64,000 bases of DNA from an uncultured bacterium (GTDB lineage: Bacteria; Omnitrophota; Omnitrophia; Omnitrophales; JACQLI01). The stretch is from assembly GCA_964372875.1 (NCBI GenBank), contig CAYJTB010000001.1:27860-91859 (forward strand), written 5' to 3'. Positions 15,316 to 48,173 of this stretch are shown here, piece after piece (within the stretch, counting starts at the first letter, position 1; every line of letters begins with the position of its first letter). The notes below the pieces were generated by a model, which was not told the origin of the DNA, ran no database searches, and saw nothing but the letters and a program-made list of their open reading frames with translations. The translations under genes were made by a program, and so were the position numbers.

Positions 15316-18300
15316 ATGACCCTACGCGCGAAAAATTTTTATCTACGCACTGTCGCAGCTTTCACCGCAATCATTTTTTGCTGGAATAGCCTTGCTTGGC
15401 CGCTTCCCGAGGTTGCGGTTCCCCAGGCCGGCAAAACTTTCGATCTCATTCCAAAAGAACTCGGAACCGTCGATGAATACGAACTGCCGGACGCTTCACA
15501 TTCCGCACCCTTTGTCATACATATTCAAGATCTCCACGCAGCACCCGAAGCTCAAGAAAAAATCCTGGACATTCTTAAATTTTTACATTCAAAAAAGAAA
15601 CTTCTCGTAGCGGTCGAAGGAGCCGCCGGAACGCTTCATCCTGAGTATTTAGATTTCTTTCCGCAATACCCGCGTGTCACAAACGCACTCGTTCAAGATT
15701 TGGTAAGTGAGAGCATGCTTACAGGGCCGGCGTTATTCGCATGGGAGAGGTATGAGAGTAAGCCGTCATTGCACCCGTCATTGCGAGGACGTAAGTCCGA
15801 AGCAATCTCAAATCCTAGATTGCTTCGTCGGGCCTTTGGCCCTCCTCACAATGACAATAGCGTCCAATTCATAGGCGTCGAGACGCCGCGTCTTTATCGC
15901 GAAAACCTTAAAGCCTATCGCGATTTTTTCCAGGATGAAGAAAAAAATCAGCAGGATTTGAAATCTTTCCAAACCTCATTGGAATCGGCCCAAACGAAGA
16001 TTTTCAATCCTGATTTGAGGAAATTTGTCCAAGAAGTCCAGAGACGTAAAGATGGAAAGTTTCAATCGGGAAAGGCCTCGCCCGATCTTGCGGCTTACAT
16101 TCGCTTTCTCGCGGATTCAAGCCGAGATCATTTGGGAGTTGATCTAAGAGATAAATTCGAACAGATCCGTTTTCCCAATCTAACCCGCATTCTTTTCTTG
16201 ATGGAATTCGAATCAAAAATCACTGCTCACCAGCGCCGGGTTCTGCATTCTGAAATTGAATCCAAAAAACTTTTTGATGAAATCACACTTCTCGAAACAA
16301 GACTGCGGCAAATACTGGTTAAAAAGCCGGAAGAAACAAAACTTCTTGAGATCCTTGATGATTTCAAGTTGCTTGAGAAGTTATTCCATTTGGAACTGAC
16401 TCGCGAGGAATATTACCAAGTCGTCAACAGGGTTTTGGAAATCAATCCGTCGAATTTACATCAGCGTTTGGCAACCATTGCTGAGATTGCTTCGACCTCG
16501 TCTGAAATGTTGTCTCGCAATGACGCCGATTACGAAACTGCTCTGCGTTTTTACCGCTTAGCCATTCGCAGAGACAAAGCCCTTCTTGAAAATGCCTTGC
16601 GAGAGGCAGCTAAAACGGAGAACTCGTCTCAAGAAAAACCACTCATCGTTCTTGTTACCGGCGGTTTTCACACTTCAGGGGTGAGCGAGCTTCTCAAAGA
16701 AAAGAAAATTCCTTACGCCGTCGTCACGCCTGCCTTAGCAAAAACCAAAGCCAATCAAGACCAATATCACAAACTGATGTCCGGCAAAATGTTCGCCAAA
16801 GAAGCCTCAAGCGCTTCGCCCAAGAATAACAATCTGGTGTGGGCGCAGATTCTTACAGCAAGAGATCGGTACCCGAGCCTCAATTCCGACGAGGATCAGC
16901 AAAAAATATTTTCCCACGCGACTGAAAAGTCCGGCGAGTATTTTCGAAAATTCTATCCCCAAATCTCCGAACCCAAACTGCAAGAACTTTTATCTCGCCC
17001 CGCCGGATTCTTTTCGCAAATCTCCCGTTCCGAATTGCAAAGTAGGAGCCAGATTACGAATTCGGCCATCGATGGCCGAATTGGCGGGAAAAGGGTACTG
17101 CCTTCACGTTTTCCGCGCTCGGAAGTGCGGGCGGTAGAACAGCGATTAGAAGTCAGTGGTCAGAAGACAGAAGGCTGGAGTTCAAAGATAGGAAAAATTA
17201 TCAGGAATGGCAGCGATTTTGGACTATCGAGGGTTTTCCAGCGTAGTCAGGCGAAGAATTATCGAATTCCAAGCCGCTTAGAAAAATCTCGAGGTGAAAG
17301 AATAGAAATCTCTTTAAAGGTTTTCATCGATAGCAGATCGTGGTCTCCTGTGACAATGATCGTTGCTTTAGCTGAAAGAGCGCATTCCAGCACGGCATCA
17401 TCGTCCGGGTCACGGCAGGCCTTTACCTTTGTTTTAGGTTTGACTATCAAAGCTTTCATATGGATCAATGAAATCATTTCTTCAAGCATTTCAGGCGTGA
17501 TCCATTTCTTGAGTTTAGGTTTTTCCAGTGAGCGAAGAAAGTCTTCCAGTAAGGCCGGAGATAAAGCCGCAATGAACTTGTCTTCTTCCAGGGATTCCAG
17601 AATCGAACGGCAAACGCCCGGAAAGGCGAGTCCGCTCACCAGCACATTCACATCAAGAACGACCCGACGCATACCGTTCCTGCCGGGCTTGCTTGACCAG
17701 ATTCAGAAGCTCTTTTCGGCTGAGAGGGTGTTTCTTTCGGCTTTTATCAACTTTGCGGGTCAGAGAACGGAAGCGTTCTCCCCAGGTCTTATGTTCAAGA
17801 CGACGGATCAGGGTAATGCGGTCACGGGATTTCAATTGATTGATCATGCGCTCAATTTGTTGAATGTCTACTTCCACGGCAATCTTAGGCATAGGATTTT
17901 ATCCTCCTCTTCGAATCAGTATAATTTATCGGCCTTGGCGGATCAAAATCAAAACATTTCTTCCGTTAAGCCTTCTAAGCAAAGTTCGACAGAACCGAGC
18001 CGAAGGGCCGCTTCCGGCCCCGAGAGCCGTCAGTCTCCGATCCTAAGCGTCGATAGACCCGGAGGGGCCCGTGGGGAGGTGCGGGCAAAAGAACAGAGGT
18101 CAGAAGTCAGAGAGCAGAGGATAGAGGTCATAAGTCAGAGATCAGAAGGAAAAATTACTTCGAGTGGCGGCGATTTTGGTAGCGTTCGATCAGGTACATC
18201 ACGCCCCAGGCAAGAAATATCAAAACCAAAACAAGAGACACGGTTATCACGTTTTATTTACCCCTTTTCCGAATCTCTTGGGCAAGCCATCCAAGAAATA

Positions 18301-27300: not shown

Positions 27301-28719
27301 ATAAAAAATCATTTTCTGACCGCGCTTCATCATTTCATTTGGGAACACAGCGACTTTGAAGATGCGAAGAATTTAGCCAGAGAACTCGGTAACTTGAGCC
27401 TAATCAGTTCTTTGTTGGGTGAGCCCCTCAGTAAAAGACAGGCCGCTTTTTATAAGCGCGCACTTTTGAGCTCTGACCGCACGCAGCAGAAGATCGCGCT
27501 TGGCTTCTTCGAGACTTTCCCTGATCTTGAAAAAATGGACTGGAAAGAGGAAGTCGTTGGTAAACTTAAAGAAATCGTAATGGATGAATCCGAAGATTCT
27601 GAATTTAGAAAATATGCCTTTGAAGCGTTGACAAACAATATTCTTCTTATAGAGCCAGCCTTTTTGGCGCCTTATTTTAAAGAGCCGCGCAGCCAACGGT
27701 TTCGAATCATTTCTTCGGATAAAAAAGGCGCTCGGATTTTATTTTCGGTTCTTCAGAAGAAATTTGGGTCGCCTTTAAAGGACCCGCCCCTTTTTAAAAA
27801 AAGTTCCGAGTCCATCATTTTATCAGGAGAATTTACGACAGGTCTGAGAAATGCTGCCATGTTGATCCGATTTGTAAGGCAGGCCTACGGCCGGGAGATA
27901 TCCTTTGATGAGTCCCGCGGCTTGCTTAAAGAGATGAAAAAGAAACAAGACAGATCCCGGCGTTCCGAAATACGGAGTGAAAGCTTGGATTCGACGTGGG
28001 AGTTGAGGGAGGATGCGAACAAAGGAAAGCTTGCGGAACTTGGAAAACAATTTGCGCCGATGATTGAGAGTCTTTGGAAACGCTCCGAGGTCAGGCACAG
28101 GCTTGCGACGGACGGATTTTTGAATCTTTCAAAGCTGATTGAAATTCCCAAAGCCGAAGCGGCTGAACCTGCGATTGTAGCTGCGCTTTTGATCCGTGCA
28201 GAACAATCCCAAACCGGAACGCCGGCTTTGGACAAACATTTGCAAGTGTGGCAGTCGCGCATGGGAATCAGTTCGGTTGCTAAAGAAAATGAAGTCGTAA
28301 TCCTCTTAGAAGGTGCGGCGTTTAAACTCGGACTCTTGGCTGCGATCGACGGAATTAGCCCGGCAGCTCCGAAGATCGGCGTTGTGGCGCCCAAGGCTTA
28401 CCATTCTTTAGTGGAAGAAGTCAGAAGCGGTCTTAGAACCGGGCAAGAACTGATCGAAGGGGAGAAGCTTCCCGAAATTTTAAATCAAATTGCTCAGATG
28501 AAACAGAAGCCAAGCCGCTTAACGATTTGGGCTTCGAAGGAAGACTCGTTCTTAACAGCAGCGTTCATCAAACGTTTTCTTAAAGATCCAAACCTGAATG
28601 TAGAAGTAAAGACCGTGACGCAGCGCGATCTTGACCGCGCCAACGCGTCTCACCCCGGCTTTGCGGAACGTATCAAGAACTTCCTCGCCGCCGTCAAATC
28701 CCTCAGCATTTCCGCTTAA
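15316..28719 (+). CDS. giant secreted multi-domain protein (4467 aa): signal peptide, helical N-region, 7-blade WD40-like beta-propeller, three ~70-aa WN..HP repeats, Pol-beta-like nucleotidyltransferase-like motif, HEAT/ARM-like helical C-terminus; contains recurrent RSEVR motifs and in-frame GC-rich hairpin repeats
   Basis: Single uninterrupted 13.4-kb ORF; N-terminus MTLRAKNFYLRTVAAFTAIIFCWNSLAWP; WD40-like blades ~18.55-19.5 kb; GSLGVLGSAVRDKSDLNLMVV at ~25.49 kb; RBS aggaaag upstream. Confidence 0.8.
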   Translation: MTLRAKNFYLRTVAAFTAIIFCWNSLAWPLPEVAVPQAGKTFDLIPKELGTVDEYELPDASHSAPFVIHIQDLHAAPEAQEKILDILKFLHSKKKLLVAVEGAAGTLHPEYLDFFPQYPRVTNALVQDLVSESMLTGPALFAWERYESKPSLHPSLRGRKSEAISNPRLLRRAFGPPHNDNSVQFIGVETPRLYRENLKAYRDFFQDEEKNQQDLKSFQTSLESAQTKIFNPDLRKFVQEVQRRKDGKFQSGKASPDLAAYIRFLADSSRDHLGVDLRDKFEQIRFPNLTRILFLMEFESKITAHQRRVLHSEIESKKLFDEITLLETRLRQILVKKPEETKLLEILDDFKLLEKLFHLELTREEYYQVVNRVLEINPSNLHQRLATIAEIASTSSEMLSRNDADYETALRFYRLAIRRDKALLENALREAAKTENSSQEKPLIVLVTGGFHTSGVSELLKEKKIPYAVVTPALAKTKANQDQYHKLMSGKMFAKEASSASPKNNNLVWAQILTARDRYPSLNSDEDQQKIFSHATEKSGEYFRKFYPQISEPKLQELLSRPAGFFSQISRSELQSRSQITNSAIDGRIGGKRVLPSRFPRSEVRAVEQRLEVSGQKTEGWSSKIGKIIRNGSDFGLSRVFQRSQAKNYRIPSRLEKSRGERIEISLKVFIDSRSWSPVTMIVALAERAHSSTASSSGSRQAFTFVLGLTIKAFIWINEIISSSISGVIHFLSLGFSSERRKSSSKAGDKAAMNLSSSRDSRIERQTPGKASPLTSTFTSRTTRRIPFLPGLLDQIQKLFSAERVFLSAFINFAGQRTEAFSPGLMFKTTDQGNAVTGFQLIDHALNLLNVYFHGNLRHRILSSSSNQYNLSALADQNQNISSVKPSKQSSTEPSRRAASGPESRQSPILSVDRPGGARGEVRAKEQRSEVREQRIEVISQRSEGKITSSGGDFGSVRSGTSRPRQEISKPKQETRLSRFIYPFSESLGQAIQEIRIMMATIIERTALAFNEVFQMFSLTTRAANTRLTALMIPSANKFRLLDGKRVFISMLQAPQPNTGLILSQILFLEYEISRRSEVREYISDWTVSTLETKQPVLAAAFSTDGKILAAGARNNVHLTNGDLRKWSVEFRAHRNEIAKLISFQRGNRNFFATASRIGSISLWNSNGGLIRRLEQLNPEDFQPVLGLSVSKNGDWLAATDMDVMKIYDLTGMSSPKTIPITDQSRNHFVQFSPDGTSIASTYYGEIRIEDIKTGKLRANLHHEASLKKSMDTSALAFSKGDDVAAASTDGKIRIWRWKGERQPQVLDFLSPAREASHLIFSPNGKRLAASTADQIEIWKLNGKVWRHEETIYPHLDAVTEILFSPDAKRFMAAGIWHGSGRVRIWSKETPARAEVRTDGIPTTWFRIFNRLDNLNREVWKQKDLDIIDLTNQLEKKLISLFGSQLLYGIWTWNTSVREVRFGLRSGPLSFELTANPHQEIPEREIKRGYTVTMNAMLTSAAESQHAKKWGDSEPEERGETLLEIPIAEIDRSQPVIYFGSFYFDTDKEKKETIIKQEILFLPGEERNYQIYIWHNNALEKTTLEKEGGRTYAVWRTPEAEPSLSFQYVALHDAQGKDLGEISRLILKAGNSETYRNNLQFLYGPIWRDETSSFSHGSRTSVKPSVFEDLISAAPGKRIAALLGLAIEYQYVPEGQVFSRMLLTELEKLEGLPYGRIAALREIAEMSPEEAHERFKDPYDQPSAIPAVMTLVASLAPRLLERMKNWDQEFYEELKGVLQKPDLKTLFEEGEVKFYEADHLWAASDNRSFFPGVVAFSRSKDRQIIVPIYFGNEPKDEDGKVWFKILDATSLGIENSNAATYQVYDHMLGEFYKTLHSGEKLYREGWSIGIPVVPGKLDRAGFIQKGRHVQFLEMRRTQSLTTATRIGLPENLVKTQGILTDLLREMSKLEIYFFISKTGATDRRMVPVDNVYEFFSSYAGKKGEHWNEIVSEPLQLTVSSPGFKRQTLRHALRMMQEALQLTYSFPGTLKGNDPHLSFYHDKLIEETQLLKTSDQTGKWAHVEFEIASSHFEMPDHWDQPAENSLRQRIQALREALEIPFVLMLKAPSGAKDPYHIEPVGNLHQRLPYFVLKDDFLKNPHDPRFPYFSKGAQLSFGLEAPMDSARLEQVRNILVASLEGRMSAATLKRAIEVTMHQWQREDSFFSESRSEARRVPRTLAVHPVRLAPGTPLYPDRSGPGVAVQSHWNSARSEVRTEKSERLTRSNAGELLKPRRYLKNKIYGIGRITAVEGKFGGKDPQGSVEVAFLNKHGFEETKEFSTWSLFQLPEQNPEEAFFSVTRQEIEDFKNQKRQGQAAYKEEIDKKRIAQREGRQWMEAQSPTFSLYDSPFSARAGRPLAADYRKLMQGIQDRAQGEYHLGSASIVERKILFEMLGTRLIPKTNQSETTLRINLGRRKKEFAEKLKTILDETGGLSARAVSEAEEKIMSPKDKSRALSSEWLKFRDPVTGKFATEKDIKRWIQNAIPIVERILEYEVKLLKLEKQIQIHPRPLARSEVRAAESSPTKKVAFFNLRTADDSSIVLPQRMSYLPVEQRLPDYSAWRIRVGRESGNLHAFLRDVLGPRWHWNVKGETKAYFLYKSLPKKFKQFIGKRKPPTGFDMEALGLLVVNRSDIFYIPMEETVNESVVTVLDKNDRDAINEFISHHAMIQTVPQNIRIFPPVRYESVKFGLGEDPVSSPKPGSIEVVYHPRLMVNDLGKADKEIIFETSFDLTQLRPRKKITAELEGRFYQELKSRLRNTWQIRIGNRTVEMPRAKDLPAKVQDVEEILLPGNNRKTASLHFNDAVSFYLDGILMRSNVPVPKDIHAWIFWKTRIRFNDQEISVETTEGNNVLTYRTDETGEHLRVNGEPTDNSVLQNMIRQMGSAFSILAFQMARDPEQTDYLRESGKETIDDEFDQWLGRSEVREEGQPAQNGNGHAIQKKQRGRGFRTKEEALQALAERQAKGLSSDPKSLQRHLAEGGNPTLLTFIYRWNQKHPEEPIEMKLLPTRTHKYESKGEIIEALEKRRLEKGESANYRMQLRLHIEEGGDRTLYQAVLRWNHDHPEDLINLPLDPHVAHGQLGKYQTKQDGLNTLSERKKQGLGNSTSDLRQTKSDGGDWPLLVFIRHWNKKHPKDRIALENADQNFNRLSPVAVWHSQTQDFKTTDQKRTEWWRALQEEADHEAGKRLVESFIPSVNEIAQRLSGGRDSHYEADLIQNGNMIVLETIYPERKEDQWNPSRGVSMTEFVETRLKKEMRHRTLQEIRSSGRFSIDEPYRFSKGREKEWQVPSYDAQPQEVRINNLADERDKQSGLPVILFEEKHQIAREIGKWLIKKGFLKQVKQEGIQNLAVSMIGSLGVLGSAVRDKSDLNLMVVTDANESQAEALAEKLAQWIGGRYHEPQDSEPIRISVGKEGDYEQAIADGNGFISLLQKHKVGTDPIKGIASVEVIGIPDEDNSFSEDSLTRQKTRAAFHLAFQDPRLAEQAINGILVLENAKGAAERLAQKLPSDQENLFGYYEKFLAKQAANLRKLQESSIDSKARAEVHPNPTDSGTPQSSPDQARAEVRSSLPEQRAEKKLETRKLEIGAGISGLSGRVETSNGRVFSGSDRLPIKSTRSPQKSEWQGQPSFSLPPLRSLPQKSSPNKSISRVLLERQAAISGRVLGKALLPELLLIGPKSHAETTLPASPSGPLSGIYFSQNKIYSNINSELSDFSRSDGSTSSPSVLSKAEGRVERAEVHPNPTDSGTPPHSRPTGVSTEVSLAAPPGAPPSSPERARAEVRASVEEIIRKQMLSGDLKAFEKNFESYDREKAFELLNSISKIAKEISERIRKGEEELMVAANNGQKMQEIIDAAKILENFPNDKQIHGVHLSAIINLQEIFNLTPKALPRYRNLLEAIVKHASKKEQPHQAAAEIIESFEGEQHADSQQDQFQRNEALEFLTLDLDEKVFKETVIKNHFLTALHHFIWEHSDFEDAKNLARELGNLSLISSLLGEPLSKRQAAFYKRALLSSDRTQQKIALGFFETFPDLEKMDWKEEVVGKLKEIVMDESEDSEFRKYAFEALTNNILLIEPAFLAPYFKEPRSQRFRIISSDKKGARILFSVLQKKFGSPLKDPPLFKKSSESIILSGEFTTGLRNAAMLIRFVRQAYGREISFDESRGLLKEMKKKQDRSRRSEIRSESLDSTWELREDANKGKLAELGKQFAPMIESLWKRSEVRHRLATDGFLNLSKLIEIPKAEAAEPAIVAALLIRAEQSQTGTPALDKHLQVWQSRMGISSVAKENEVVILLEGAAFKLGLLAAIDGISPAAPKIGVVAPKAYHSLVEEVRSGLRTGQELIEGEKLPEILNQIAQMKQKPSRLTIWASKEDSFLTAAFIKRFLKDPNLNVEVKTVTQRDLDRANASHPGFAERIKNFLAAVKSLSISA
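17259..17672 (-). CDS. PIN-domain toxin (TIGR00305-like), encoded antisense inside the giant ORF
   Basis: MRRVVLDVNVLVSGL...CRDPDDDAVLECALSAKATIIVTGDHDLL: conserved acidic residues of the PIN fold. Confidence 0.75.
   Translation of the reverse strand: MRRVVLDVNVLVSGLAFPGVCRSILESLEEDKFIAALSPALLEDFLRSLEKPKLKKWITPEMLEEMISLIHMKALIVKPKTKVKACRDPDDDAVLECALSAKATIIVTGDHDLLSMKTFKEISILSPRDFSKRLGIR
17653..17892 (-). CDS. putative antitoxin partner of the nested PIN toxin
   Basis: 79-aa basic/helical protein overlapping the PIN start by 20 nt (classic TA arrangement); no recognisable fold by eye. Confidence 0.5.
   Translation of the reverse strand: MPKIAVEVDIQQIERMINQLKSRDRITLIRRLEHKTWGERFRSLTRKVDKSRKKHPLSRKELLNLVKQARQERYASGRS
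18258..18461 (-). CDS. small (67 aa) 2-TM membrane protein, antisense inside giant ORF; paralog of 26324..26533
   Basis: MKTLFPSKRRNLF...VSLVLAALVV...SLKAKAVLSIIVAIMILISW; AT-rich promoter-like region immediately upstream on the minus strand (TTGACT at 18505-18510). Confidence 0.5.
   Translation of the reverse strand: MKTLFPSKRRNLFADGIMRAVSLVLAALVVSENIWKTSLKAKAVLSIIVAIMILISWMACPRDSEKG
21972..22113 (+). repeat. in-frame GC-rich hairpin cluster inside giant ORF (paralogous to 26062-26130 and 26630-26790)
   Basis: gtgcacccg-loop-cgggtactcc flanks shared with the 26-kb copies; stems cccggtgc/gcaccggg, acccggacc/ggtccgggt, cattggaac...gttccaatg; ends in RSEVR codons. Confidence 0.5.
26062..26130 (+). 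repeat. in-frame structured repeat unit (40-nt perfect repeat + second hairpin) inside giant ORF
   Basis: gccgaggtgcacccgaatccgaccgattcgggtactcctc identical at 26062-26101 and 26644-26683; hairpin cccgaatc/gattcggg; second hairpin cctcgcc-cgatca-ggcgagg. Confidence 0.6.
26324..26533 (-). CDS. small (69 aa) 2-TM membrane protein, antisense inside giant ORF; paralog of 18258..18461
   Basis: GTG start; MKSIFLTTARRDWL...VILVLLAGVLGG...SLKWRLVVLGGLVICFYLGLIF; shares MK(S/T)(I/L)F, K.SLK...VL...V.I pattern with the other copy; AT-rich region with TTGATA upstream on minus strand. Confidence 0.5.
   Translation of the reverse strand: MKSIFLTTARRDWLAKLFQHVILVLLAGVLGGELFLKLSLKWRLVVLGGLVICFYLGLIFAASSSKEED
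26630..26790 (+). repeat. in-frame structured repeat unit, second copy, with four hairpins
   Basis: Same 40-nt repeat; additional stems actcacgcc/ggcgtgagt, cctggcggc/gccgccagg, cctcgcc-tgaacg-ggcgagg (loop differs from copy 1 while stem is kept). Confidence 0.6.
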
Positions 28720-28807: not shown

Positions 28808-29017
28808 ATGACACGAGTGACAGTTTCCCCAAAATATCAAATCGTGATCCCTAAAGAAATTAGGGAAAAGTTGGATATTCGGTGCGGACAGAAGATGGCC
28901 GTCGTAACAAGAGGGGAATGGATTATGCTGGTTCCCGATCTGCCTTTGAAACATTATCGGGGGTTTTTGAAAGGTGTGAGTTCAGAGGGGGTTCGTGACC
29001 GAAGGGACCGGTTTTGA
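28808..29017 (+). CDS. vapB: AbrB/MazE-fold antitoxin (VapB-like)
   Basis: 69 aa, MTRVTVSPKYQIVIPKEIREKLDIRCGQKMAVV swapped-hairpin motif; 4-nt overlap with downstream PIN gene. Confidence 0.75.
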   Translation: MTRVTVSPKYQIVIPKEIREKLDIRCGQKMAVVTRGEWIMLVPDLPLKHYRGFLKGVSSEGVRDRRDRF

Positions 29018-29391
29018 CGGTCATCGATTCAAGCGGTTGGATTGAGTTTTTTAGCGAAGGTCCACTTGCCTCCCATTATGAAAAGCATTTGGGGTCTTTG
29101 TCTGAGATTGTCGTTCCTACCATTGTGCTTTATGAAGTCTACAAGAAATATAAGAGAGAAAGCGGAGAGCAAGGCGCTTTGACCGCGGTGTTTCATATGC
29201 AAAAGTGCCGGATCGTACCTTTAACAGAAGAATTGAGTTTGGAGGCGGCGGATTTAAGCCTTCAATACGGACTTGCCATGGCCGATGCGATTGTTTATGC
29301 GTCGGCACTTCAGGAAAAAGCAAAGTTAATCACCAGCGATAAAGCCTTAAAAAATCTGCCTCAAGTGGTTTACTACAGTAAATCGTCCTAA
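29014..29391 (+). CDS. vapC: PIN-domain ribonuclease toxin VapC
   Basis: 125 aa, VIDSSGWIEFF...conserved Asp/Glu, ADAIVYASA, LITSD. Confidence 0.75.
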   Translation: MTVIDSSGWIEFFSEGPLASHYEKHLGSLSEIVVPTIVLYEVYKKYKRESGEQGALTAVFHMQKCRIVPLTEELSLEAADLSLQYGLAMADAIVYASALQEKAKLITSDKALKNLPQVVYYSKSS

Positions 29392-29397
29392 GATTCC

Positions 29398-30312
29398 TTG
29401 AGTTCCACGCAAATCGCCCTTCTTAAAAAATACGGTCTTGAAGTCCGTGGATTTCGCGGCCAGCATCTTTTGGTCGATCCCAACATTCAACGAAAGATCG
29501 TGGAGTTAGTCGCTCCCAAACCAGGTGAGTGGATCGTTGAGATCGGGCCGGGCCTGGGTGCGCTCACGACTGAGATTTTGGCGGACGGCGCGTCGGTCCT
29601 TGCGATTGAAAAAGACAAACGCTTCTGCGAGATCCTGGAAGGGGAGTTCGGCATCGATTACAAAGGAAAACTCCTGATCGAAAATGCGGATGTTCTCAAG
29701 ACGGATTTAAAAAAATTACTCAAATCGTCGTTACGAGCCCCAAAGAGGCGAAGCAACCTAAGCACGAAGACTGCTTCGGCGCCGCCTCGCAATGACCGGA
29801 TCAAAGTCATCTCGAACCTTCCTTACTATATAACTTCACCTGTGCTTTTCTGGCTGATCTCCAATCGTGCATCTGTGGAAAAAGCGGTTTTGATGATGCA
29901 GGCTGAAGTCGCGGACCGTTTGCTCGCCCAGCCGGGAGATAAAGATTATAGCCGGCTTACCTTGGGAGTCCGGTATTACGCCGAAGTCCACCGTGCTTTT
30001 GAAGTTTCCCGCAATTGTTTTACTCCGAGGCCCGATGTCGATTCAACGGTCGTGACGATCGATTTTCACCCGCCGTCCGCATTCCCAAAAGGAATCGACG
30101 AGGCATTTCTTTTCCATCTCATTCAAGTAGCCTTCGGTGCCCGGCGAAAAACCCTACTCAATCGTCTTACGCAAGATTCAAAAGTAGGTCGCCCTCGTTC
30201 CCAGCTCTTAGAAATTTTTCACAAGCTCGGCATCCCCGAAATGGCCCGCGCTGAAGAGCTCCTCCTCAAAGACTTCATCTCATTGACCGAATTTCTTCAA
30301 CCTAAACATTAA
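29398..30312 (+). CDS. rsmA: 16S rRNA (adenine1518/1519-N6)-dimethyltransferase RsmA/KsgA, carrying an in-frame palindromic-element insertion
   Basis: TTG start; GQHLLVDPNI, VVEIGPGLGALT, NLPY motif; ~23-aa extra loop (...RRSNLSTKTASAPPRND) coincides with element 29727-29796. Confidence 0.88.
   Translation: MSSTQIALLKKYGLEVRGFRGQHLLVDPNIQRKIVELVAPKPGEWIVEIGPGLGALTTEILADGASVLAIEKDKRFCEILEGEFGIDYKGKLLIENADVLKTDLKKLLKSSLRAPKRRSNLSTKTASAPPRNDRIKVISNLPYYITSPVLFWLISNRASVEKAVLMMQAEVADRLLAQPGDKDYSRLTLGVRYYAEVHRAFEVSRNCFTPRPDVDSTVVTIDFHPPSAFPKGIDEAFLFHLIQVAFGARRKTLLNRLTQDSKVGRPRSQLLEIFHKLGIPEMARAEELLLKDFISLTEFLQPKH
29727..29796. repeat. palindromic element (degenerate 5-prime TIR gtcgttacgag ... cctcgcaatgac) inside rsmA
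   Basis: 3-prime end identical to the tsaD and larB copies (CCTCGCAATGAC); internal gaagcaa motif shared. Confidence 0.55.
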
Positions 30313-30331
30313 AATTCATTATCCGGAAGGA

Positions 30332-30420
30332 CACGAGTCTCGTCGTCACTCGTAACGCCCCTGCGAGACAGTCCCCTTCTATATTGTTTCTTTTCAAGGA
30401 TCGGGGCAAGTCCCCGTGGG
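30332..30420 (+). repeat. intergenic repeat B1 (~90 nt), inverted copy at 32753-32845
   Basis: cacgagtctcgtcgtcactcgtaacgcccctgcgagacagtccccttctatattgtttcttttcaaggatcggggcaagtccccgtggg; ~90% identical to the reverse complement of 32753-32845. Confidence 0.7.
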
Positions 30421-30547
30421 ACGTCCTCGTTCGTGCGTCCGGCCTCGTTCTCCGCCAAAACGCGTGGCGGATCCCTGCCCACTCGGCCTTCCGAACGCGC
30501 CTCGACTGGTCCTTCCGCTGATCGTAACCTAGCAGAATCCCCAAGCC

Positions 30548-30609
30548 TGAGACGGTCCCCTTCATTAATTTTTATTTTCAAGGATCGGGACAGCCCCCTT
30601 GTGGGGCGG
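30548..30609 (+). repeat. intergenic repeat B2 (shorter copy of the B family)
   Basis: gagacggtccccttcattaatttttattttcaaggatcgggacagcccccttgtggggcgg. Confidence 0.65.
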
Positions 30610-30630
30610 CGTAGCGGCCGTTACGGAAAA

Positions 30631-30657
30631 ATCCGGAAAAGATTTTTCCGTAGGCCC
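30631..30657. repeat. conserved hairpin CGGAAAAATC-loop-GATTTTTCCG (second copy at 32712-32738)
   Basis: 10-bp perfect stem in both copies with different loops. Confidence 0.6.
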
Positions 30658-30772
30658 ACGAGTGAGGGCGACTCCTTGTCCGTTTCTATCTTGTCGCCTG
30701 AACGTTCGGCGAAGGCTGTGGGGATTCTCCCTGCGTTGACAATAAGAATTGCGGCATGCTACGATCCTTGGC

Positions 30773-31057
30773 ATGTCGTTTGAAATCGAGCAAATTGCGG
30801 AACTTGCAAGACTCAGTCTGAAGCCTGAAGAAAAGGCCAAGTTAAAGAAGGATCTGGAATCGATCCTCGCCTATATGGCGCAGTTGAAAGCCGTTCCGAC
30901 GGACGATGTAGAGCCCACAAGTCACGTCCTTAATCTGGAAAATGTCTTCCGGGAAGATGAAATTAAGCCTTCCGATATCCGCGAAGATGTCCTCAAGTAT
31001 GCCCCTCACCGAGAAGGAAGTTTCTTCAAGGTCCCCAAGGTCATTGATCAGGAATAA
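30773..31057 (+). CDS. gatC: aspartyl/glutamyl-tRNA amidotransferase subunit C
   Basis: MSFEIEQIAELARLSLKPEEKAKL...; ORF track starts at 30749 but GatC family begins at this Met. Confidence 0.88.
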   Translation: MSFEIEQIAELARLSLKPEEKAKLKKDLESILAYMAQLKAVPTDDVEPTSHVLNLENVFREDEIKPSDIREDVLKYAPHREGSFFKVPKVIDQE

Positions 31058-32475
31058 TGTCTGATTTCAGACTCACTTTAAAAGAAGCGATCGGTTTCTC
31101 TCAAAAAAACGGGGCGGAGCCGCTTATCCAAGGTCTTTCTAAGCGGGTCCAAGACGTAGATGGAAAAATAAATGCCTATATCCGTTTTGACCCGTCAAAA
31201 ATCGAGCGGGCCAAAAATCAGGGGCTGCTCCACGGCGTTCCTATTTCTATCAAAGACAATATTTGTACGCGTGGGTGGGAGACAACATGCGCGTCAAAAA
31301 TTTTGTACGGATATACCCCTCCTTATGACGCGGCGGTGATCGAAAAATTGCGGGCTGCGGGCGCCACAATTTTTGGTAAATGCAACATGGATGAATTTGC
31401 TTTTGGCTCCTCCAATGAAACCTCGACTTTCGGTCCCGTCCACAATCCTTGGGATTTGGAAAGGGTGCCGGGCGGTTCAAGCGGCGGATCGGCGGCAAGC
31501 GTTGCGGCGGATGAGGCCTTTGCAGCGCTTGGATCTGACACCGGCGGATCGATCAGGCTTCCTGCCGCATTCTGCGGAGTTGTAGGATTCAAACCCACGT
31601 ATGGAAGAGTCTCGCGTTACGGCCTCGTCGCCTTTGGTTCAAGCTTTGACCAGATCGGTCCCATTACAAAAACCGTTGAAGACTCGGCTATCTTAATGAA
31701 TATTTTGGCGGGTTACGATGAACGCGATTCAACCTCTGCAAATATTCCGGTTCCTGATTACATCCAAGCATTAAAGCGGGGAGTTAAAGACCTAAAGATC
31801 GGAATGCCTAAAGAATTTTTTGTCAAAGGTATGGACCCGGAGATTGAAAAGGCAGTGCGCAAAGCGGGGAAAGTTTATGAAAAGATGGGTGCAACGATCA
31901 AAGAAGTAAGTCTGCCGCACACGGAGCATTCGGTCGCTGCCTATTACATTGTAGCCGTAGCTGAGGCAAGTTCCAATCTCGGCCGTTATGACGGCGTCGA
32001 ATATGGACTCCGGGCAAGTGAGAATAATTTGCGTGATATGTATTTTGAGACGCGCGATCAAGGGTTTGGCCAGGAATCGAAGCGGCGAATTCTTTTGGGC
32101 ACGTTTGTACTCTCAGCCGGTTATTACGATGCATATTATAGGAAAGGCCAAAAGGTAAGGACTTTGATCCGGCAAGATTATGAGAAGGCGTTTAAAGAAA
32201 TCGACGTTCTCTTGACTCCTGTTTCGCCGTCGCCTCCTTTTAAACTAGGCGAAAAATTAACCGATCCGCTTACGATGTATCTTTCAGATATTTTTACGAT
32301 CTCTGTGAATCTGGCAGGAGTCCCGGCCATCGTCCTTCCGTGCGGTTTCACAAAATCCAATCTTCCGATTGGAATGCAGCTTATCGCGCCGGCTTTTGCC
32401 GAAGAGACTCTCTTTCAAGCTGCATCTGGCTACGAACAGGAAACCCAATGGTTCAAACGCAAACCGAAAATTTAA
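31057..32475 (+). CDS. gatA: aspartyl/glutamyl-tRNA amidotransferase subunit A (amidase signature)
   Basis: 472 aa; amidase signature GGSSGGSAASVAA, catalytic Ser-cisSer-Lys context. Confidence 0.93.
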   Translation: MSDFRLTLKEAIGFSQKNGAEPLIQGLSKRVQDVDGKINAYIRFDPSKIERAKNQGLLHGVPISIKDNICTRGWETTCASKILYGYTPPYDAAVIEKLRAAGATIFGKCNMDEFAFGSSNETSTFGPVHNPWDLERVPGGSSGGSAASVAADEAFAALGSDTGGSIRLPAAFCGVVGFKPTYGRVSRYGLVAFGSSFDQIGPITKTVEDSAILMNILAGYDERDSTSANIPVPDYIQALKRGVKDLKIGMPKEFFVKGMDPEIEKAVRKAGKVYEKMGATIKEVSLPHTEHSVAAYYIVAVAEASSNLGRYDGVEYGLRASENNLRDMYFETRDQGFGQESKRRILLGTFVLSAGYYDAYYRKGQKVRTLIRQDYEKAFKEIDVLLTPVSPSPPFKLGEKLTDPLTMYLSDIFTISVNLAGVPAIVLPCGFTKSNLPIGMQLIAPAFAEETLFQAASGYEQETQWFKRKPKI

Positions 32476-32494
32476 TGCCAAAGAGCAGAATCTC

Positions 32495-32550
32495 CGCCCC
32501 ACAAGGGGGCTGTCCCGATCCTTCAAAAGAAACATTAATGAAGGGGACCG
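32495..32550 (-). repeat. intergenic repeat B3 (reverse orientation)
   Basis: ccgccccacaagggggctgtcccgatccttcaaaagaaacattaatgaaggggaccg = reverse complement of B2-type unit. Confidence 0.65.
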
Positions 32551-32711
32551 CCTGCGTCGGACGTTCGGCCGGCGCATGAACGGGTGAGGAAATCAAAAGG
32601 TGATCATTCCAAATGAACGTGAACAGATAAGGAAACAGTAATAATCTGGGAAGATGCACACAGGTATGAAGATCGAAACGGACAAGGTGCCGGCCTCACT
32701 CGACGGGCCTT

Positions 32712-32738
32712 CGGAAAAATCTATTCCGGATTTTTCCG
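32712..32738. repeat. second copy of CGGAAAAATC/GATTTTTCCG hairpin
   Basis: cggaaaaatctattccggatttttccg. Confidence 0.6.
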
Positions 32739-32752
32739 AGACGGCCCAACGC

Positions 32753-32845
32753 CGCCCCACAAGGGGGCTGTCCCGATCCTTGAAAAGAAACAATATAGAA
32801 GGGGACTGTCTCGCAGGGACGTTGCGAGTGGCGACGAGACTTGTG
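32753..32845 (-). repeat. intergenic repeat B4, inverted copy of B1; B1 and B4 bracket gatC-gatA
   Basis: ccgccccacaagggggctgtcccgatccttgaaaagaaacaatatagaaggggactgtctcgcagggacgttgcgagtggcgacgagacttgtg. Confidence 0.7.
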
Positions 32846-32865
32846 CCTGCAGCGGATGGAAATTA

Positions 32866-34287
32866 ATGGAAACAGTCATTGGATTAGAAGTTCACGTTCA
32901 GCTGAAAACGAAATCGAAATTATTCTGCGGATGCCCCAACGCATTTGGCGCGGAGCCCAACCGCAATACATGTCCTGTCTGTATGGGTCTGCCGGGCTCG
33001 CTGCCGGTACTGAATCGGGAAGCCTTGCGCTTTGCGGTTAAGATCGGTCTGGCGCTTAATTGCCAAGTGGCGGACCGCCTCAAATTCGACCGGAAAAATT
33101 ATTTTTACCCTGACCTACCCAAGGCTTATCAAATTTCTCAATTCGATATGCCGGTCAATTCCACGGGCTTTCTTATGGTGGAAACTTCCAAAGATCTTAA
33201 GAAAATAGAAATCACACGCGCGCATTTGGAAGAAGATGCCGGAAAACTTTTGCACGAAGGAATCAAAGACGGAAGCCTTGTTGATTACAACCGCGCCGGT
33301 GTTCCCTTGCTCGAGATTGTTTCTGAGCCCGACCTTCGTTCGCCCGAAGATGCTTATGATTACCTCGCCACTCTCAAAGCTATCCTCCAATATCTGGAAG
33401 TAAGTGATTGCGATATGGAAAAGGGGAGTCTACGCTGCGACGCCAATATTTCCGTAAGAAAAGAAGGCGACCCGAAGCTTGGAACGAAAGTTGAAATTAA
33501 AAATATGAATTCCTTCCGCGCGGTTCAAAAAGCCGCTGAATATGAAATCAGCCGCCAAATCAAAGTGTTGGAAGAGGGCGGAAAGCTCGTGCAGGAGACG
33601 CGGCTTTGGAATGAGGCCAAAGGCCAAACCTTTTCCATGCGTTCCAAGGAATTTGCTCACGATTATCGATATTTTCCTGAGCCCGATCTTGTGCCCTTCA
33701 CGATTTCCCGCAGCGAAGTTGAAGAGGCACAAAAAACCATGCCCGAACTGCCGGTCGACCGGGCAAAACGGCTCATGCAGGAATATCAGCTCACAGAAAA
33801 AGATGCATTGAGGCTCGTGCAAGATAAAAAATTGGTGGAATATTATGAGACTTGTCTTAAAACAAAGGCCAATCCCAAACTTGTGAGTAACTGGATTTTA
33901 AGTGAACTCCTGGGTCACCTAAATCAAAAAGCTCTGGGGATTGAGGCTTCTCCAGTTTCACCCGCAGCCCTCGCCGGACTTGTGCAACTCATTGAGAACA
34001 ACACCATCAGCGGTAAGATTGCCAAAGATGTGCTTCCTGAAATGATTGAAACAGGGAAATCCGCAGAAGTGATCGTCAAAGAAAAAGGTCTCGTGCAAGT
34101 GACCGATGTGAAATTTTTGGAAGAAGCAGTCCAGCGTATTATCCAAGCCAATCCCAAATCTGTGGAGGATTACCGGTCCGGAAAAAAACAAGCCTTGGGT
34201 TTTTTGGTGGGCCAGATTATGAAAGAGACTCAAGGCAAGGCCAATCCTAAGATGGTCAATGAAATCCTGGAAAGGAAACTGTCGTGA
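32866..34287 (+). CDS. gatB: aspartyl/glutamyl-tRNA amidotransferase subunit B
   Basis: 473 aa; METVIGLEVHVQL..., C-x-C...C-x-C N-terminal motif, conserved GatB/YqeY tail. Confidence 0.93.
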   Translation: METVIGLEVHVQLKTKSKLFCGCPNAFGAEPNRNTCPVCMGLPGSLPVLNREALRFAVKIGLALNCQVADRLKFDRKNYFYPDLPKAYQISQFDMPVNSTGFLMVETSKDLKKIEITRAHLEEDAGKLLHEGIKDGSLVDYNRAGVPLLEIVSEPDLRSPEDAYDYLATLKAILQYLEVSDCDMEKGSLRCDANISVRKEGDPKLGTKVEIKNMNSFRAVQKAAEYEISRQIKVLEEGGKLVQETRLWNEAKGQTFSMRSKEFAHDYRYFPEPDLVPFTISRSEVEEAQKTMPELPVDRAKRLMQEYQLTEKDALRLVQDKKLVEYYETCLKTKANPKLVSNWILSELLGHLNQKALGIEASPVSPAALAGLVQLIENNTISGKIAKDVLPEMIETGKSAEVIVKEKGLVQVTDVKFLEEAVQRIIQANPKSVEDYRSGKKQALGFLVGQIMKETQGKANPKMVNEILERKLS

Positions 34288-35362: not shown

Positions 35363-35808
35363 ATTGGTTCAGTTCCCAAGACACCCTTATGATCACAAGA
35401 CTTTTTCTTGCGACATTTCTTGCGAGCTTTATTGGGATCGAGCGGGAAATCCACGGTAAAGTAGCCGGATTTAGAACACATGCCCTAGTATCGCTGGGCT
35501 CCGCCCTCATCATGCTTGTTTCCATTGATCTTTCGGAGGCGTATCGTGGAGTGGTGGATGTGGACCCTTCAAGGATTGCGGCACAAGTCGTAAGTGGTAT
35601 CGGATTTTTGGGAGCAGGCGCTATTATCCGGTTTCGAACGGGGATCACCGGGCTCACGACAGCGGCCAGTCTGTGGGTCGCGGCCGGGGTGGGTCTTGCC
35701 TGCGGCGCCGGATTTTTCAAACCGGCTTTCGTTGCCACACTCTTCGCCCTTTTGGTTTTAGCCCTTTTTGGGACCTTAGGCAGGTGGCTTGGTTGGAAAG
35801 ACGTATGA
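35359..35808 (+). CDS. MgtC/SapB family membrane protein
   Basis: 149 aa; RLFLATFLASFIGIEREIHGK...GIGFLGAGAI...LWVAAGVGLACG typical MgtC N-domain. Confidence 0.8.
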   Translation: MNWFSSQDTLMITRLFLATFLASFIGIEREIHGKVAGFRTHALVSLGSALIMLVSIDLSEAYRGVVDVDPSRIAAQVVSGIGFLGAGAIIRFRTGITGLTTAASLWVAAGVGLACGAGFFKPAFVATLFALLVLALFGTLGRWLGWKDV

Positions 35809-36692
35809 CACTCACACAAGAAACTATCGGAAAAATTTTAAAAGAGGTCGAATCGCGCAAAATTTCCAGCCAGAAGGCGTTTGGGAAATTACAAAATCTC
35901 GCTTACGAAACTTTTTCATTCGCCAGGATGGATCATCACCGTACTCTGCGCAAAGGTTTTCCGGAGGCGATCTACACACCCGGTAAAACGATTCCTCAAC
36001 TGGAAAAAATTTTCCGTTCGATCCAAAAATCAGGACAAAAGCTGATCGCGACGCGCTTGGAGGAGAGTGTTTATAAAACACTCAGGAAAAAATTCCCCGG
36101 TCTTCGCTATTCAAAGGAAGCAAGGATTGGGTATTTCTCATCCGTCATTGCGAGAAGCACCAACGGTGCGACGAAGCAATCCCGACCAGAGATTGCTTCG
36201 TCCCTTCCTACGGAAGGGACGGTTAAAGGAATCCTCTTTAGCCCTGACGCCAGTGGCAACAGGACTTCGGCTTTGTCTGGAACGCCGCCTCGCAATGACA
36301 GAGAGAAATCCATTGCGATTCTCACCGCTGGCACGAGCGATCTTCCGGTTGCGGAAGAGGCGGCCATTACGCTTGAATTAATAGGAAAGAAAGTTGTCCG
36401 GATTTATGACTGCGGTGTCGCGGGCCTGCACCGGCTTTTGGATCAAGTCTCAACATTACAAGAAGTCAAAGCCGTGATCTGCGTTGCGGGAATGGAAGGC
36501 GCACTTCCGAGTGTGGTCGCTGGCTTGATCAGTAAACCTATCATTGCAGTTCCGACCAGTGTGGGTTACGGCGCAAGCTTCAAAGGTCTTGCGGCGCTTC
36601 TTACCATGCTCAATTCCTGCGCTCAAGGTGTAGCCTGCGTCAATATTGATAACGGATTCGGCGCCGCCTGCTTTGCCGCGTCTATTGCCTAA
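35805..36692 (+). CDS. larB: LarB (PurE-like nickel-pincer nucleotide biosynthesis carboxylase/hydrolase), with in-frame 52-codon palindromic-element insertion
   Basis: ATGA overlap with mgtC-like stop; C-terminal PurE-like domain ILTAGTSDLPVAEE...VICVAGMEGALPSVVAG...AVPTSVGYG; element 36144-36299 inserted in N-domain. Confidence 0.75.
   Translation: MTLTQETIGKILKEVESRKISSQKAFGKLQNLAYETFSFARMDHHRTLRKGFPEAIYTPGKTIPQLEKIFRSIQKSGQKLIATRLEESVYKTLRKKFPGLRYSKEARIGYFSSVIARSTNGATKQSRPEIASSLPTEGTVKGILFSPDASGNRTSALSGTPPRNDREKSIAILTAGTSDLPVAEEAAITLELIGKKVVRIYDCGVAGLHRLLDQVSTLQEVKAVICVAGMEGALPSVVAGLISKPIIAVPTSVGYGASFKGLAALLTMLNSCAQGVACVNIDNGFGAACFAASIA
36144..36299. repeat. palindromic element, 156 nt (multiple of 3), TIR GTCATTGCGAG / CTCGCAATGAC, inside larB
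   Basis: Perfect 11-12-nt terminal inverted repeats; internal 12-bp stem gacgaagcaatc/gattgcttcgtc; shares gacgccagtggc block with the tsaD copy. Confidence 0.7.
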
Positions 36693-47282: not shown

Positions 47283-48173
47283 GTGAGCGGGTTTAAGATT
47301 AAATTTCTCCTCAGTGTAATCTCGTTACTGGTGATTGTCCCCAGTGTCGTTATATCTGCGCCCAAGCAAGATAATTACATTATCGGCCGGGACGACGTTT
47401 TAGATATTACGGTCTGGCAATCCCCCGACCTGACCAAATCCGTTACGGTCCTTTCAGACGGCACCATTGAATATCCTATTCTTGGCGTTCTACCTGCCGA
47501 AGGAACCACTCCCGCAGCTCTCGCAAAAGCAATCAGTGATAAACTTGCGCAAGGATACGTTAAAGAACCCAGGGTAAACGTTGCGGTTAAAGAATATAAC
47601 AGCAAAAAGATCCTGGTCTTTGGCGAAGTTGCGAAACCGGGTCTTTATAAACTTAAGGGTGAAGTGCCGGTTCTCGAATTACTTTTTATGGTGGGAGGTG
47701 CTAACATGACTGCCAAGCGGATGACCATCATTCGTCCTCCGGCCGGTAATAGTGAAAAATCGGCAACGCCCGTTGCTTTTGGAGGTGAAGAAGCCAATGT
47801 AAATACGACTTCCATTGAAATTGATTTAATCTCCCTGTTATCCAAGGGAAATCTTTCTCAGAATGTATTCATTAGGCCGGGGGATACCGTTTACGTTTCG
47901 TCAGGGACAGGGCAACGTTTTTATGTCCTGGGTCAAGTGATGAATCCAGGCCCCTACGAGTGGAGTCAGGATATTACCGTTTTGGAAGCCATTAAAGCGG
48001 CGGGTGGGGTGAAGGAAAAAGGCGCACCTAACCGGATTAAAGTCAGAAAAACTTTCAATGGACAGAAAGAGGATATCAAAGTGAATGTTTTAGAGATTAT
48101 GAAGGGGAAGAAAAAAGATGATGTCGTGATTAAGCCCGGTGACACAATCATTGTCCCCGAAAGCTGGGTATGA
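47283..48173 (+). CDS. polysaccharide export protein (Wza/KpsD family: Poly_export + SLBB domains)
   Basis: GTG start; DDVLDITVWQSPDLT...GDTVYV, C-terminal SLBB (GDTIIVPES). Confidence 0.8.
   Translation: MSGFKIKFLLSVISLLVIVPSVVISAPKQDNYIIGRDDVLDITVWQSPDLTKSVTVLSDGTIEYPILGVLPAEGTTPAALAKAISDKLAQGYVKEPRVNVAVKEYNSKKILVFGEVAKPGLYKLKGEVPVLELLFMVGGANMTAKRMTIIRPPAGNSEKSATPVAFGGEEANVNTTSIEIDLISLLSKGNLSQNVFIRPGDTVYVSSGTGQRFYVLGQVMNPGPYEWSQDITVLEAIKAAGGVKEKGAPNRIKVRKTFNGQKEDIKVNVLEIMKGKKKDDVVIKPGDTIIVPESWV

Follow-up and report, generated by a model that had tools for sequence, protein, structure and literature searches.

The gat locus in a 64-kb stretch of DNA from an uncultured bacterium (contig CAYJTB010000001.1) raises the question of what fills the two long spacers on either side of gatC and gatA. 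The whole stretch is referred to as the window, and all coordinates are positions within it. By its GatA homologues, the window is assigned to Candidatus Omnitrophota. The spacers are read here as mosaics of at least three nested families of small non-coding mobile repeats, resembling miniature transposable elements with inverted repeats (MITEs) or bacterial interspersed mosaic elements (BIMEs), and not as a regulatory leader, with a probability of roughly 0.75. They would constitute a new repeat family or set of families, familiar in kind and not surprising. The families are termed U, W, and core (C), and their copies in the window are given below. Loci of relatives used for comparison are numbered L001 to L016, and P-numbers denote database proteins.

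~30310-30529, + strand: U, ~190 nt without its insert, carrying core B1; aligned with the core-less U copies of L001 (11749-11940), L003, and L015
~30310-30333, + strand: left terminal repeat of U, TAAAATTCATTATCCGGAAGGAC
30371-30422, + strand: core B1, inserted in U (profile search, repeat search)
~30508-30524, + strand: right terminal repeat of U, GGTCCTTCCGCTGATCG
30531-30731, + strand: upstream W, carrying core B2, with ~115 nt of its middle deleted (nhmmer W profile, E=1.9e-22)
30531-30542 and 30720-30731, + strand: left (AGCAGAATCCCC) and right (GGGGATTCTCCC, degenerate) terminal repeats of upstream W
30555-30607, + strand: core B2, inserted ~20 nt into upstream W
30616-30656, + strand: hairpin H of upstream W, with outer stem GGCC/GGCC, inner stem CGGAAAAATC/GATTTTTCCG (30624-30650), and loop CGGAAAA
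32481-32753, - strand: downstream W, carrying core B3 (nhmmer, E=5e-60)
32496-32548, - strand: core B3, lying within downstream W at 11 nt from its right end
32705-32746, - strand: hairpin H of downstream W, inner stem 32712-32721 / 32729-32738
32754-32806, - strand: core B4, a chimera of B1-type and B2-type cores
32807-32865, - strand: left part of U alone, reversed, with its terminal repeat and the CCTGCGA-loop hairpin

The gatA-gatB spacer is 390 nt long (32476-32865), as the initial annotation had it, while the rsmA-gatC spacer is 460 nt (30313-30772) and not ~435 nt. Four copies of a repeat exist, two in direct orientation in each spacer, and those downstream of gatA are reversed (B1 and B2 on the + strand, B3 and B4 on the - strand). 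The unit is ~53 nt in length, not 55, and the copies are not tandem but lie 184 and 258 nt apart, start to start, with unrelated repeat modules between the paired cores of each spacer. The conserved hairpin is found in both spacers (CGGAAAAATC/GATTTTTCCG at 30624-30650 and 32712-32738). The initial description treated unit and hairpin as a single repeat, but each has its own family within the nest: the unit is C, and the hairpin is a part of W. All of the spacer repeat features exceed chance expectation. Repeat and profile searches place these families at the gat locus and nowhere else in the window.

A 24-nt core probe allowing ≤3 mismatches gave three matches, where the expectation from 100 shuffles is 0.00. 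With its larger number of mismatches, B1 was missed by this probe, but was recovered by the repeat search and by nhmmer; the nhmmer core profile found all four copies and no others in the window. The repeat search pairs the cores directly as 30365-30408 with 30549-30592 and 32494-32565 with 32752-32823. C folds as two hairpins and has no terminal inverted repeats. It ends in GGGGC, and its orientation relative to the host element is constant. The second hairpin of B1 contains the compensatory variant GTCCC/GGGAC for GCCCC/GGGGC, and G.U variants occur in other places. Six copies of C are known.

The core insertion point is GAGGC^GG at all three sites available, the empty sites being CGGAGGC^GGAG, CGGAGGC^GGCG, and GCGAGGC^GGTC. 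At the B1 position, the U copies of L001, L003, and L015 show the empty site GCGAG(G/A)(C/G)(G/A)GTCTTC. The W copies of L003, L004, L005, L011, and L012 lack an insert at the B2 site. The B3 site is shared with the core of L003 and is empty in L004, L005, L011, L012, and L015. Because the sites of B1, B2, and B3 are all empty in other copies, C is counted as a secondary insertion into U and W. The sdhA-sdhB spacers of L003 and L015 are ~85% identical and have the same mosaic; the core, a single clean block of 51-53 nt, is present only in L003. The placement of the core might alternatively be due to template switching or gene conversion at the GAGGCGG motif that the sites share. B4 matches B1 in U exactly over its 5' flank and 5' half, and matches B2 in W exactly over its 3' half and 3' flank. 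B4 looks like a recombination product of B1-type and B2-type cores, since recombination between two direct cores, arranged as in the upstream spacer, would yield exactly such junctions.

W is ~245 nt at full length and has terminal inverted repeats of 11-18 nt (AAGAGCAGAATCTCC). These read GCAGAATCTCC...GGAGATTCTGC in L004 and L005, or occur as variants that are matched between both ends of one copy; they are perfect in L004, L005, and L011, and 17 nt long in L011. Complete W copies with no core are present in L004 (lemA/TPM gene), L005 (3' of anmK), and twice in L011. In the window, the right terminal repeat of downstream W (AAGAGCAGAATCTCC read on the + strand, 32481-32495) follows the gatA stop. 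The first ~20 nt of this copy, including the left terminal repeat, are replaced by B4 and the left part of U.

U has terminal inverted repeats of ~20 nt (AAATTnTCATCCGCnGnAGGAC; ~18/21 positions match) and a hairpin with the conserved loop CCTGCGA. Complete copies are found in L001, L003, and L015. At its outer end, the U terminal repeat includes the rsmA stop codon TAA (30310-30312). On the other side of gatCA, the outer end of the reversed U-left part, GCGGATGGAAATTAAT, abuts gatB and contributes the A and T of the gatB ATG, together with a weak Shine-Dalgarno-like GGATGG before it. A like U-end arrangement precedes sdhB in L003 and L015.

A fourth repeat family, X (GGGACTGCTCCGCAGTCCTTTATGCCCCTCCAGGCAAGGGAGAGTTTGCTTTA), occurs alongside W in L004 (656-930, - strand), L005 (1-175), L001 (11937-11990, - strand), and L012 (~1900-2000). 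The W terminal repeat is similar to the end of X, AAAGCAAACTCTCCC, and one enzyme may therefore mobilise both families.

Orthologous gat loci were compared in relatives with 95% to 82% GatA identity. The content of the spacers varies across nine related loci, with presence and absence of elements at orthologous sites, as in the following.

L001 (congener, 88-91% nucleotide identity): rsmA-gatC spacer of 203 nt; after gatA, a W fragment, U, and X
L006: rsmA-gatC spacer of 51 nt, holding the promoter only; after gatA, U
L007: contig begins upstream of gatC and does not span rsmA-gatC; after gatA, 118 nt of other repeats
L008: rsmA-gatC spacer of 87 nt; after gatA, a 103-nt GGTTACAG palindrome
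L010: rsmA-gatC spacer of 12 nt; after gatA, another inverted-repeat element
L011: complete W in rsmA-gatC; after gatA, a second complete W in the orientation opposite to the first
L012: rsmA-gatC not covered; after gatA, W and X

In L013 and L014, gatB overlaps the end of gatA. These arrangements point to a compact ancestral gat locus. The gatA/gatB junction holds differing repeat combinations in most of the relatives examined and is thus a clear insertion hot spot. The palindrome at this junction in L008 (11459-11561; 83% GatA identity to the window) is perfect-looking, is built of GGTTACAG-type octamers, and is unrelated to U, W, and C.

The same modules occur at unrelated operons. Core, W, and U are present together in the sdhA-sdhB spacer of L003, another metagenome-assembled genome (MAG), and in that of L015/L016. 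In L004, W and X occupy the gap between lemA and a gene with a TPM domain, and in L005 they are found 3' of anmK. Core and W lie between nuoK and nuoL (P0125), as judged from a spurious open reading frame (ORF) and its gene context only, and P0128 marks one further locus. The families are thereby dispersed over at least six distinct loci in at least seven genomes or contigs, with one locus in the 64-kb window. Most of the sites are junctions of co-directional operon genes. Downstream of rsmA and lemA and within sdhA-B, W is in sense orientation; downstream of gatA and anmK and within nuoK-L, it is antisense. Of the related gatA contigs, many reach only ~2 kb, and the four spacer-bearing contigs that were fetched (the same-strain L002, L006, L011, and L012) terminate in or next to these repeats, the behaviour expected of repeats. 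The families are confined to a sub-clade of Candidatus Omnitrophota that comes mostly from metagenomes of groundwater type.

Duplication confined to the locus, with no family beyond it, would account for all four cores of the window lying within 2.5 kb, and for copies that are 87-94% alike within the locus against 62-84% elsewhere. The initial annotation had named confinement of the repeats to this locus, together with a lack of transcript and inversion evidence, as the outcome that would speak for it. Copies at five or more loci of other genomes refute this explanation, and the chance left to it is negligible. The MITE-like option stands in a refined form, with modules at other loci of related genomes, terminal inverted repeats, and presence or absence at orthologous sites.

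The position of the gatC promoter bears on whether the spacers are leaders. The promoter and the genes of the locus are as follows.

29398-30312, + strand: rsmA (16S rRNA dimethyladenosine transferase), the upstream neighbour of gatC (Pfam RrnaAD, E=4e-50)
30736-30765, + strand: predicted gatC promoter, TTGACA, 18-nt spacer, TG-n-TACGAT (sigma-70 type, extended -10, 10/12 consensus match)
30773-31057, + strand: gatC (identical protein with PF02686 in L001 and L002)
31057-32475, + strand: gatA (homologues 95-67% identical, with PF01425, many named GatA of Candidatus Omnitrophota)
32866-34287, + strand: gatB (Pfam GatB_N, E=1e-125; GatB_Yqey, E=1e-55)

The promoter is conserved in L001, L006, L007, L008, L011, and L013. 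In the sub-clade to which the window belongs, it ends 7 nt ahead of the gatC ATG (30773 in the window), and the gatC mRNA is therefore probably leaderless. In the more distant L007 and L013, the promoter is kept and is followed by a ~30-nt leader with a Shine-Dalgarno sequence. All of the upstream repeats are 5' of the promoter, so the repeats of that spacer cannot be a leader, attenuator, or riboswitch of gatC. No promoter is predicted in the gatA-gatB spacer (32476-32865). Terminator-like sites are not enriched (7 vs. 4.1 ± 2.2). H was rejected as an intrinsic terminator: its stem has no following U-tract, and terminator-like sites are not enriched.

The gat operons of some Firmicutes are under T-box control, and the spacers of this locus are long and structured, as cis-regulatory leaders (attenuator, riboswitch, or T-box-like) of gatCAB would be. 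For the upstream spacer this explanation, which includes the attenuators of the initial annotation, is already contradicted by the promoter lying 3' of the repeats and by the apparently leaderless gatC. The elements are also missing from orthologous loci in close relatives, they occur at unrelated operons, and their orientation relative to the genes varies. An Rfam scan of the window at gathering thresholds found only tRNA-Gln, and a permissive scan found nothing credible in 30250-32900 (E ≤ 10) or in the four complete-W loci (E ≤ 1). A leader function is extremely improbable. Dedicated small RNA genes, also proposed initially, find no support in promoters or terminators, which are not above background, or in Rfam.

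The mobile-repeat reading also agrees with the absence of coding capacity in U, W, and C, through which the reading frames are broken by stops. The ORFs that the initial annotation suspected of being artefacts have no genuine homologues; their matches are equally spurious ORFs over other repeat copies. This holds for an 89-aa frame in an exhaustive representative search, and a protein search with a 116-aa spurious ORF found no homologue. A 2,161-aa concatenate of stop-free frames gave no matches in a search whose 8,000-candidate list was probably saturated by random words. The top match of the 89-aa frame, P0121, was rejected as a chance low-complexity match amplified by repetition (~8 bits/unit). 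P0121 is a 1157-aa predicted protein of 12 near-identical 96-aa units, GC-rich in sequence; it probably represents a 288-nt satellite mistaken for an ORF. No match was found by blastn against plasmids and phages, and core, hairpin, and W long-range patterns were all unmatched in viral contigs. A CRISPR array was rejected because of irregular spacing. Integron attC sites, retron non-coding RNA, and omega or bridge RNAs were rejected, with no associated gene and no Rfam match. No paper connecting Omnitrophota with MITEs or intergenic palindromes was found in the literature.

W contains a conserved fold, derived from an alignment of seven copies with the cores removed. The consensus is composed of a closing stem formed by the terminal repeats, a GGGCC stem bearing H, and a long-range helix GGCCGAC/GTCGGCC. 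In this alignment, 94.4% of cells pair. Double changes are seen in 14 of the 56 pairs, against 6.1 ± 1.6 in shuffles (0/500 as high) and 0-6 in slid controls, and the W fold is supported by this covariation. H has an 11-bp stem and a 7-nt loop CGGAAWA, with CGTC 5' of the stem and AGGCCC after it, and a fold z-score of -4.6. The stem of H covaries (GTGGGAAAATC/GATTTTCCCAC in L011, GCCGAT/ATCGGC in L012) while the loop CGGAAWA is constant.

Two properties of this fold weigh against the mobile-repeat reading. Mismatches in the W helices are G.T more often than A.C (16:5, or 14:2 when two misaligned segments are removed), and W at the gatA 3' site keeps its fold in three species at 64-71% identity. 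The first hints at a strand-specific fold in RNA or single-stranded DNA, beyond the needs of a simple cut-and-paste MITE; this is suggestive only, because the alignment folds almost as well on one strand as on the other (energies of -50.7 vs. -48.1) and the strand favoured is the one used to derive the structure. The second could reflect host-level selection in place of pure selfishness. W, and perhaps C, might thus be structured RNAs that serve the host by stabilising or processing the rsmA and gat transcripts, or by decoupling translation. Such roles are reported for some repetitive extragenic palindromic (REP), ERIC, and Correia elements. In addition to the covariation and the G.T bias, this explanation would account for a fold retained in copies 62-71% identical and for spacers that fold better than shuffles (z of -3.2, -2.1, and -3.2). 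It is opposed by the mixed orientation relative to the flanking genes, by close relatives that manage without the elements, by the near-equal strand energies, and by promoter and terminator signals no higher than background. A host function of this kind is considered unlikely.

A further, doubtful proposal combines W, as a strand-specific folded element (RNA or single-stranded DNA) whose four helices and conserved CGGAAWA loop would both be under selection, with C, as a 53-nt mini-element homing to GAGGC^GG. Together they would make up a new hairpin-guided mobile system in Omnitrophota. Candidate drivers would be an HUH/Y1-type enzyme or an RNA intermediate, as opposed to ordinary MITEs derived from an insertion sequence (IS).

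The remaining points against mobile families concern copy number and ends. The families occupy one locus only in the 64-kb window, and none were found in the 10-kb flanks of L008-L010. An exact-pattern core scan gave one match in 185,579 species genomes and none in Joint Genome Institute (JGI) metagenomes, and a hairpin pattern scan gave two metagenome matches; scans of this exact-pattern kind have low sensitivity, and collections contain little of this lineage. A target-site duplication was not found consistently for W, U, or C: in L005, W is flanked by TTTAA, and L004, L011, and L012 have no direct repeat. Neither a transposase nor a parent IS sharing the ends was seen, and the examined neighbouring genes of the window include no transposase. 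A parent IS would be expected to end in AAGAGCAGAATCTCC or AAATTnTCATCCGC. The composite inserts at gatA/gatB and sdhA/sdhB are bounded by TAATG-type stop/start motifs (TTTAATG|...|ATTAATG-G in the window, ACTAATG|...|GTTTATG-A in L003).

The two sides of gatCA form inverted pairs. As noted initially for B1 and B4, 30332-30408 pairs with 32769-32845 (77 nt, 94% complementary). The sequence at 30549-30692 pairs with 32669-32812 (144 nt, 76% ungapped, 87.6% by BLAST), and 30550-30609 pairs with 32494-32553 (60 nt, 93%). The longest perfect identity between the arms is 47 nt, so homologous recombination could flip the segment containing the promoter, gatC, and gatA. This segment might then be invertible, either as a programmed switch or as a recurrent recombination polymorphism. 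Besides the arms themselves, L011 fits such a design, since gatCA there too is flanked by an upstream W(+) and a downstream W(-). Against it, every relative contig joining gatCA to rsmA or gatB shows one and the same orientation, and no recombinase gene is found among the neighbours (MazE/PIN pair, rsmA, gatB, and tsaD). A flipped segment would also deprive gatB of upstream transcription, since no promoter is predicted between gatA and gatB. Inversion as a function or polymorphism of the locus is very unlikely. Under the mobile-repeat reading, the inverted bracket would arise because W, U, and C copies of the two sides lie opposite and later exchanged sequence.

The history that best suits the mobile-repeat reading would start from a once-compact locus. 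The elements would be non-autonomous and mobile in the manner of MITEs or REP/BIME mosaics, with some enzyme mobilising them in trans. They would have piled up at the 3' end of rsmA and at the former overlap of the gatA stop and gatB start. Insertion may have duplicated the TAATG-type junction, keeping the upstream stop and recreating the downstream start; such a duplication would explain why inserts are tolerated inside operons. The gatB gene would now be read through a 390-nt insert, with the U end as its ribosome-binding region.

These repeats generate spurious ORFs, break short-read assemblies around gatCA, and inflate the apparent intergenic regulatory space of Omnitrophota MAGs. The small, gene-dense genomes of an uncultured phylum would still bear active, nested families of structured mini-elements, which settle stop/start overlaps in essential operons (gat, sdh, and nuo) without destroying the operons. 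If the W fold or the site-specificity of the core is functional, it would offer a tractable entry to the mobile-element biology of Omnitrophota.

The window contains several other repeats and features. A separate palindromic repeat, GTCATTGCGAG...GAAGCAATC (reversed, CGCCGCCTCGCAATGAC), occurs in frame inside genes at 29735-29815, 36144-36318, and 15818-15855. The first copy is in RsmA, where it adds ~24 residues (SLRAPKRRSNLSTKTASAPPRNDR) that are missing in L010 and L013. The second adds ~55 residues before the AIRC domain of a PurE/LarB-like ORF (35806-36692), and the third is inside a 4467-aa ORF. These in-gene palindromes are reminiscent of Rickettsia palindromic elements. The single 4467-aa ORF (15316-28719) has internal ~45-nt repeats (26062-26135, 26644-26780) 582-645 nt apart, and homologues of this giant gene are at the same position in L001, L008, and L010. 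The slot between the giant gene and rsmA (28808-29391) holds a MazE-PIN toxin-antitoxin pair in the window and in L001, a Phd/YefM-ParE pair in L008/L009 (L008 8155-8708), and nothing in L010 (8517-8846), a pattern that suggests one cassette replacing another at a constant position. At 50396-50463 and 52688-52721, a T-rich motif of 34 nt with TTTTTTCTCCCGGGC at its end is found at the junctions of three long ORFs in a row, 48170-50368, 50358-52595, and 52592-53926.

Elements of the IS200/IS605 type insert 3' of a fixed 4-5-nt target, have no target duplication or terminal inverted repeats, and use a Y1 transposase. The comparison is drawn for the core alone, which resembles their palindrome-associated transposable elements (PATEs) and the REP-doublet elements known as REPINs. 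Like these, it lacks terminal inverted repeats and a clear duplication, has hairpins near both ends, keeps a fixed orientation, and uses one short target, GAGGC^GG, in three contexts, with a similar pentamer (GGGGC) at its end. The core differs from known PATEs in being far smaller, at 53 nt, and in that guide sequences would not fit 5' of its first hairpin; no Y1 transposase was identified.

Compared with the REP elements and BIMEs of Proteobacteria, the repeats share short motifs in alternating-orientation mosaics, a location in gaps between co-directional genes just after stops, hairpins with compensatory stem changes, and CGTC before H. The organisation is BIME-like, with U, W, C, and X combined differently at gat, sdh, lemA, anmK, and nuo; the likeness is one of arrangement and not of membership by sequence. 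The units differ from REPs in being much longer than 20-40 bp, and no REP-associated tyrosine transposase (RAYT) is known from this lineage. CGTC-tagged REPs are 20-40-bp palindromes with an unpaired CGTC tag, an 8-9-bp stem starting with A-T pairs, a 4-5-nt loop, and a CCA tail (PMC3733652). H was rejected as a member of this class, given its 11-bp stem, 7-nt loop, and lack of a CCA tail.

Bacterial MITEs that fold into RNA hairpins include ERIC/IRU, Correia/NEMIS, RUP, and QMITE, and the direct repeats of MITEs are reported to decay with time (PMC10969869). The elements described here differ from MITEs in having no consistent target-site duplication and no known parent IS, and the spacers are not AT-rich (GC of 0.49-0.60). 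The interior of W forms not one long hairpin but a fold of several helices, in which a loop is conserved and a long-range helix covaries, and the apparent copy density is low (one locus per 64 kb). Terminal inverted repeats are a feature of W and U, not of the 53-nt core. Like MITEs (PMC10969869), U and W are small (~190-245 nt), are non-coding, and have terminal inverted repeats of 13-20 nt. They occupy intergenic and intra-operon sites in either orientation, vary in presence between close relatives at orthologous sites, and have stable predicted transcript structures.

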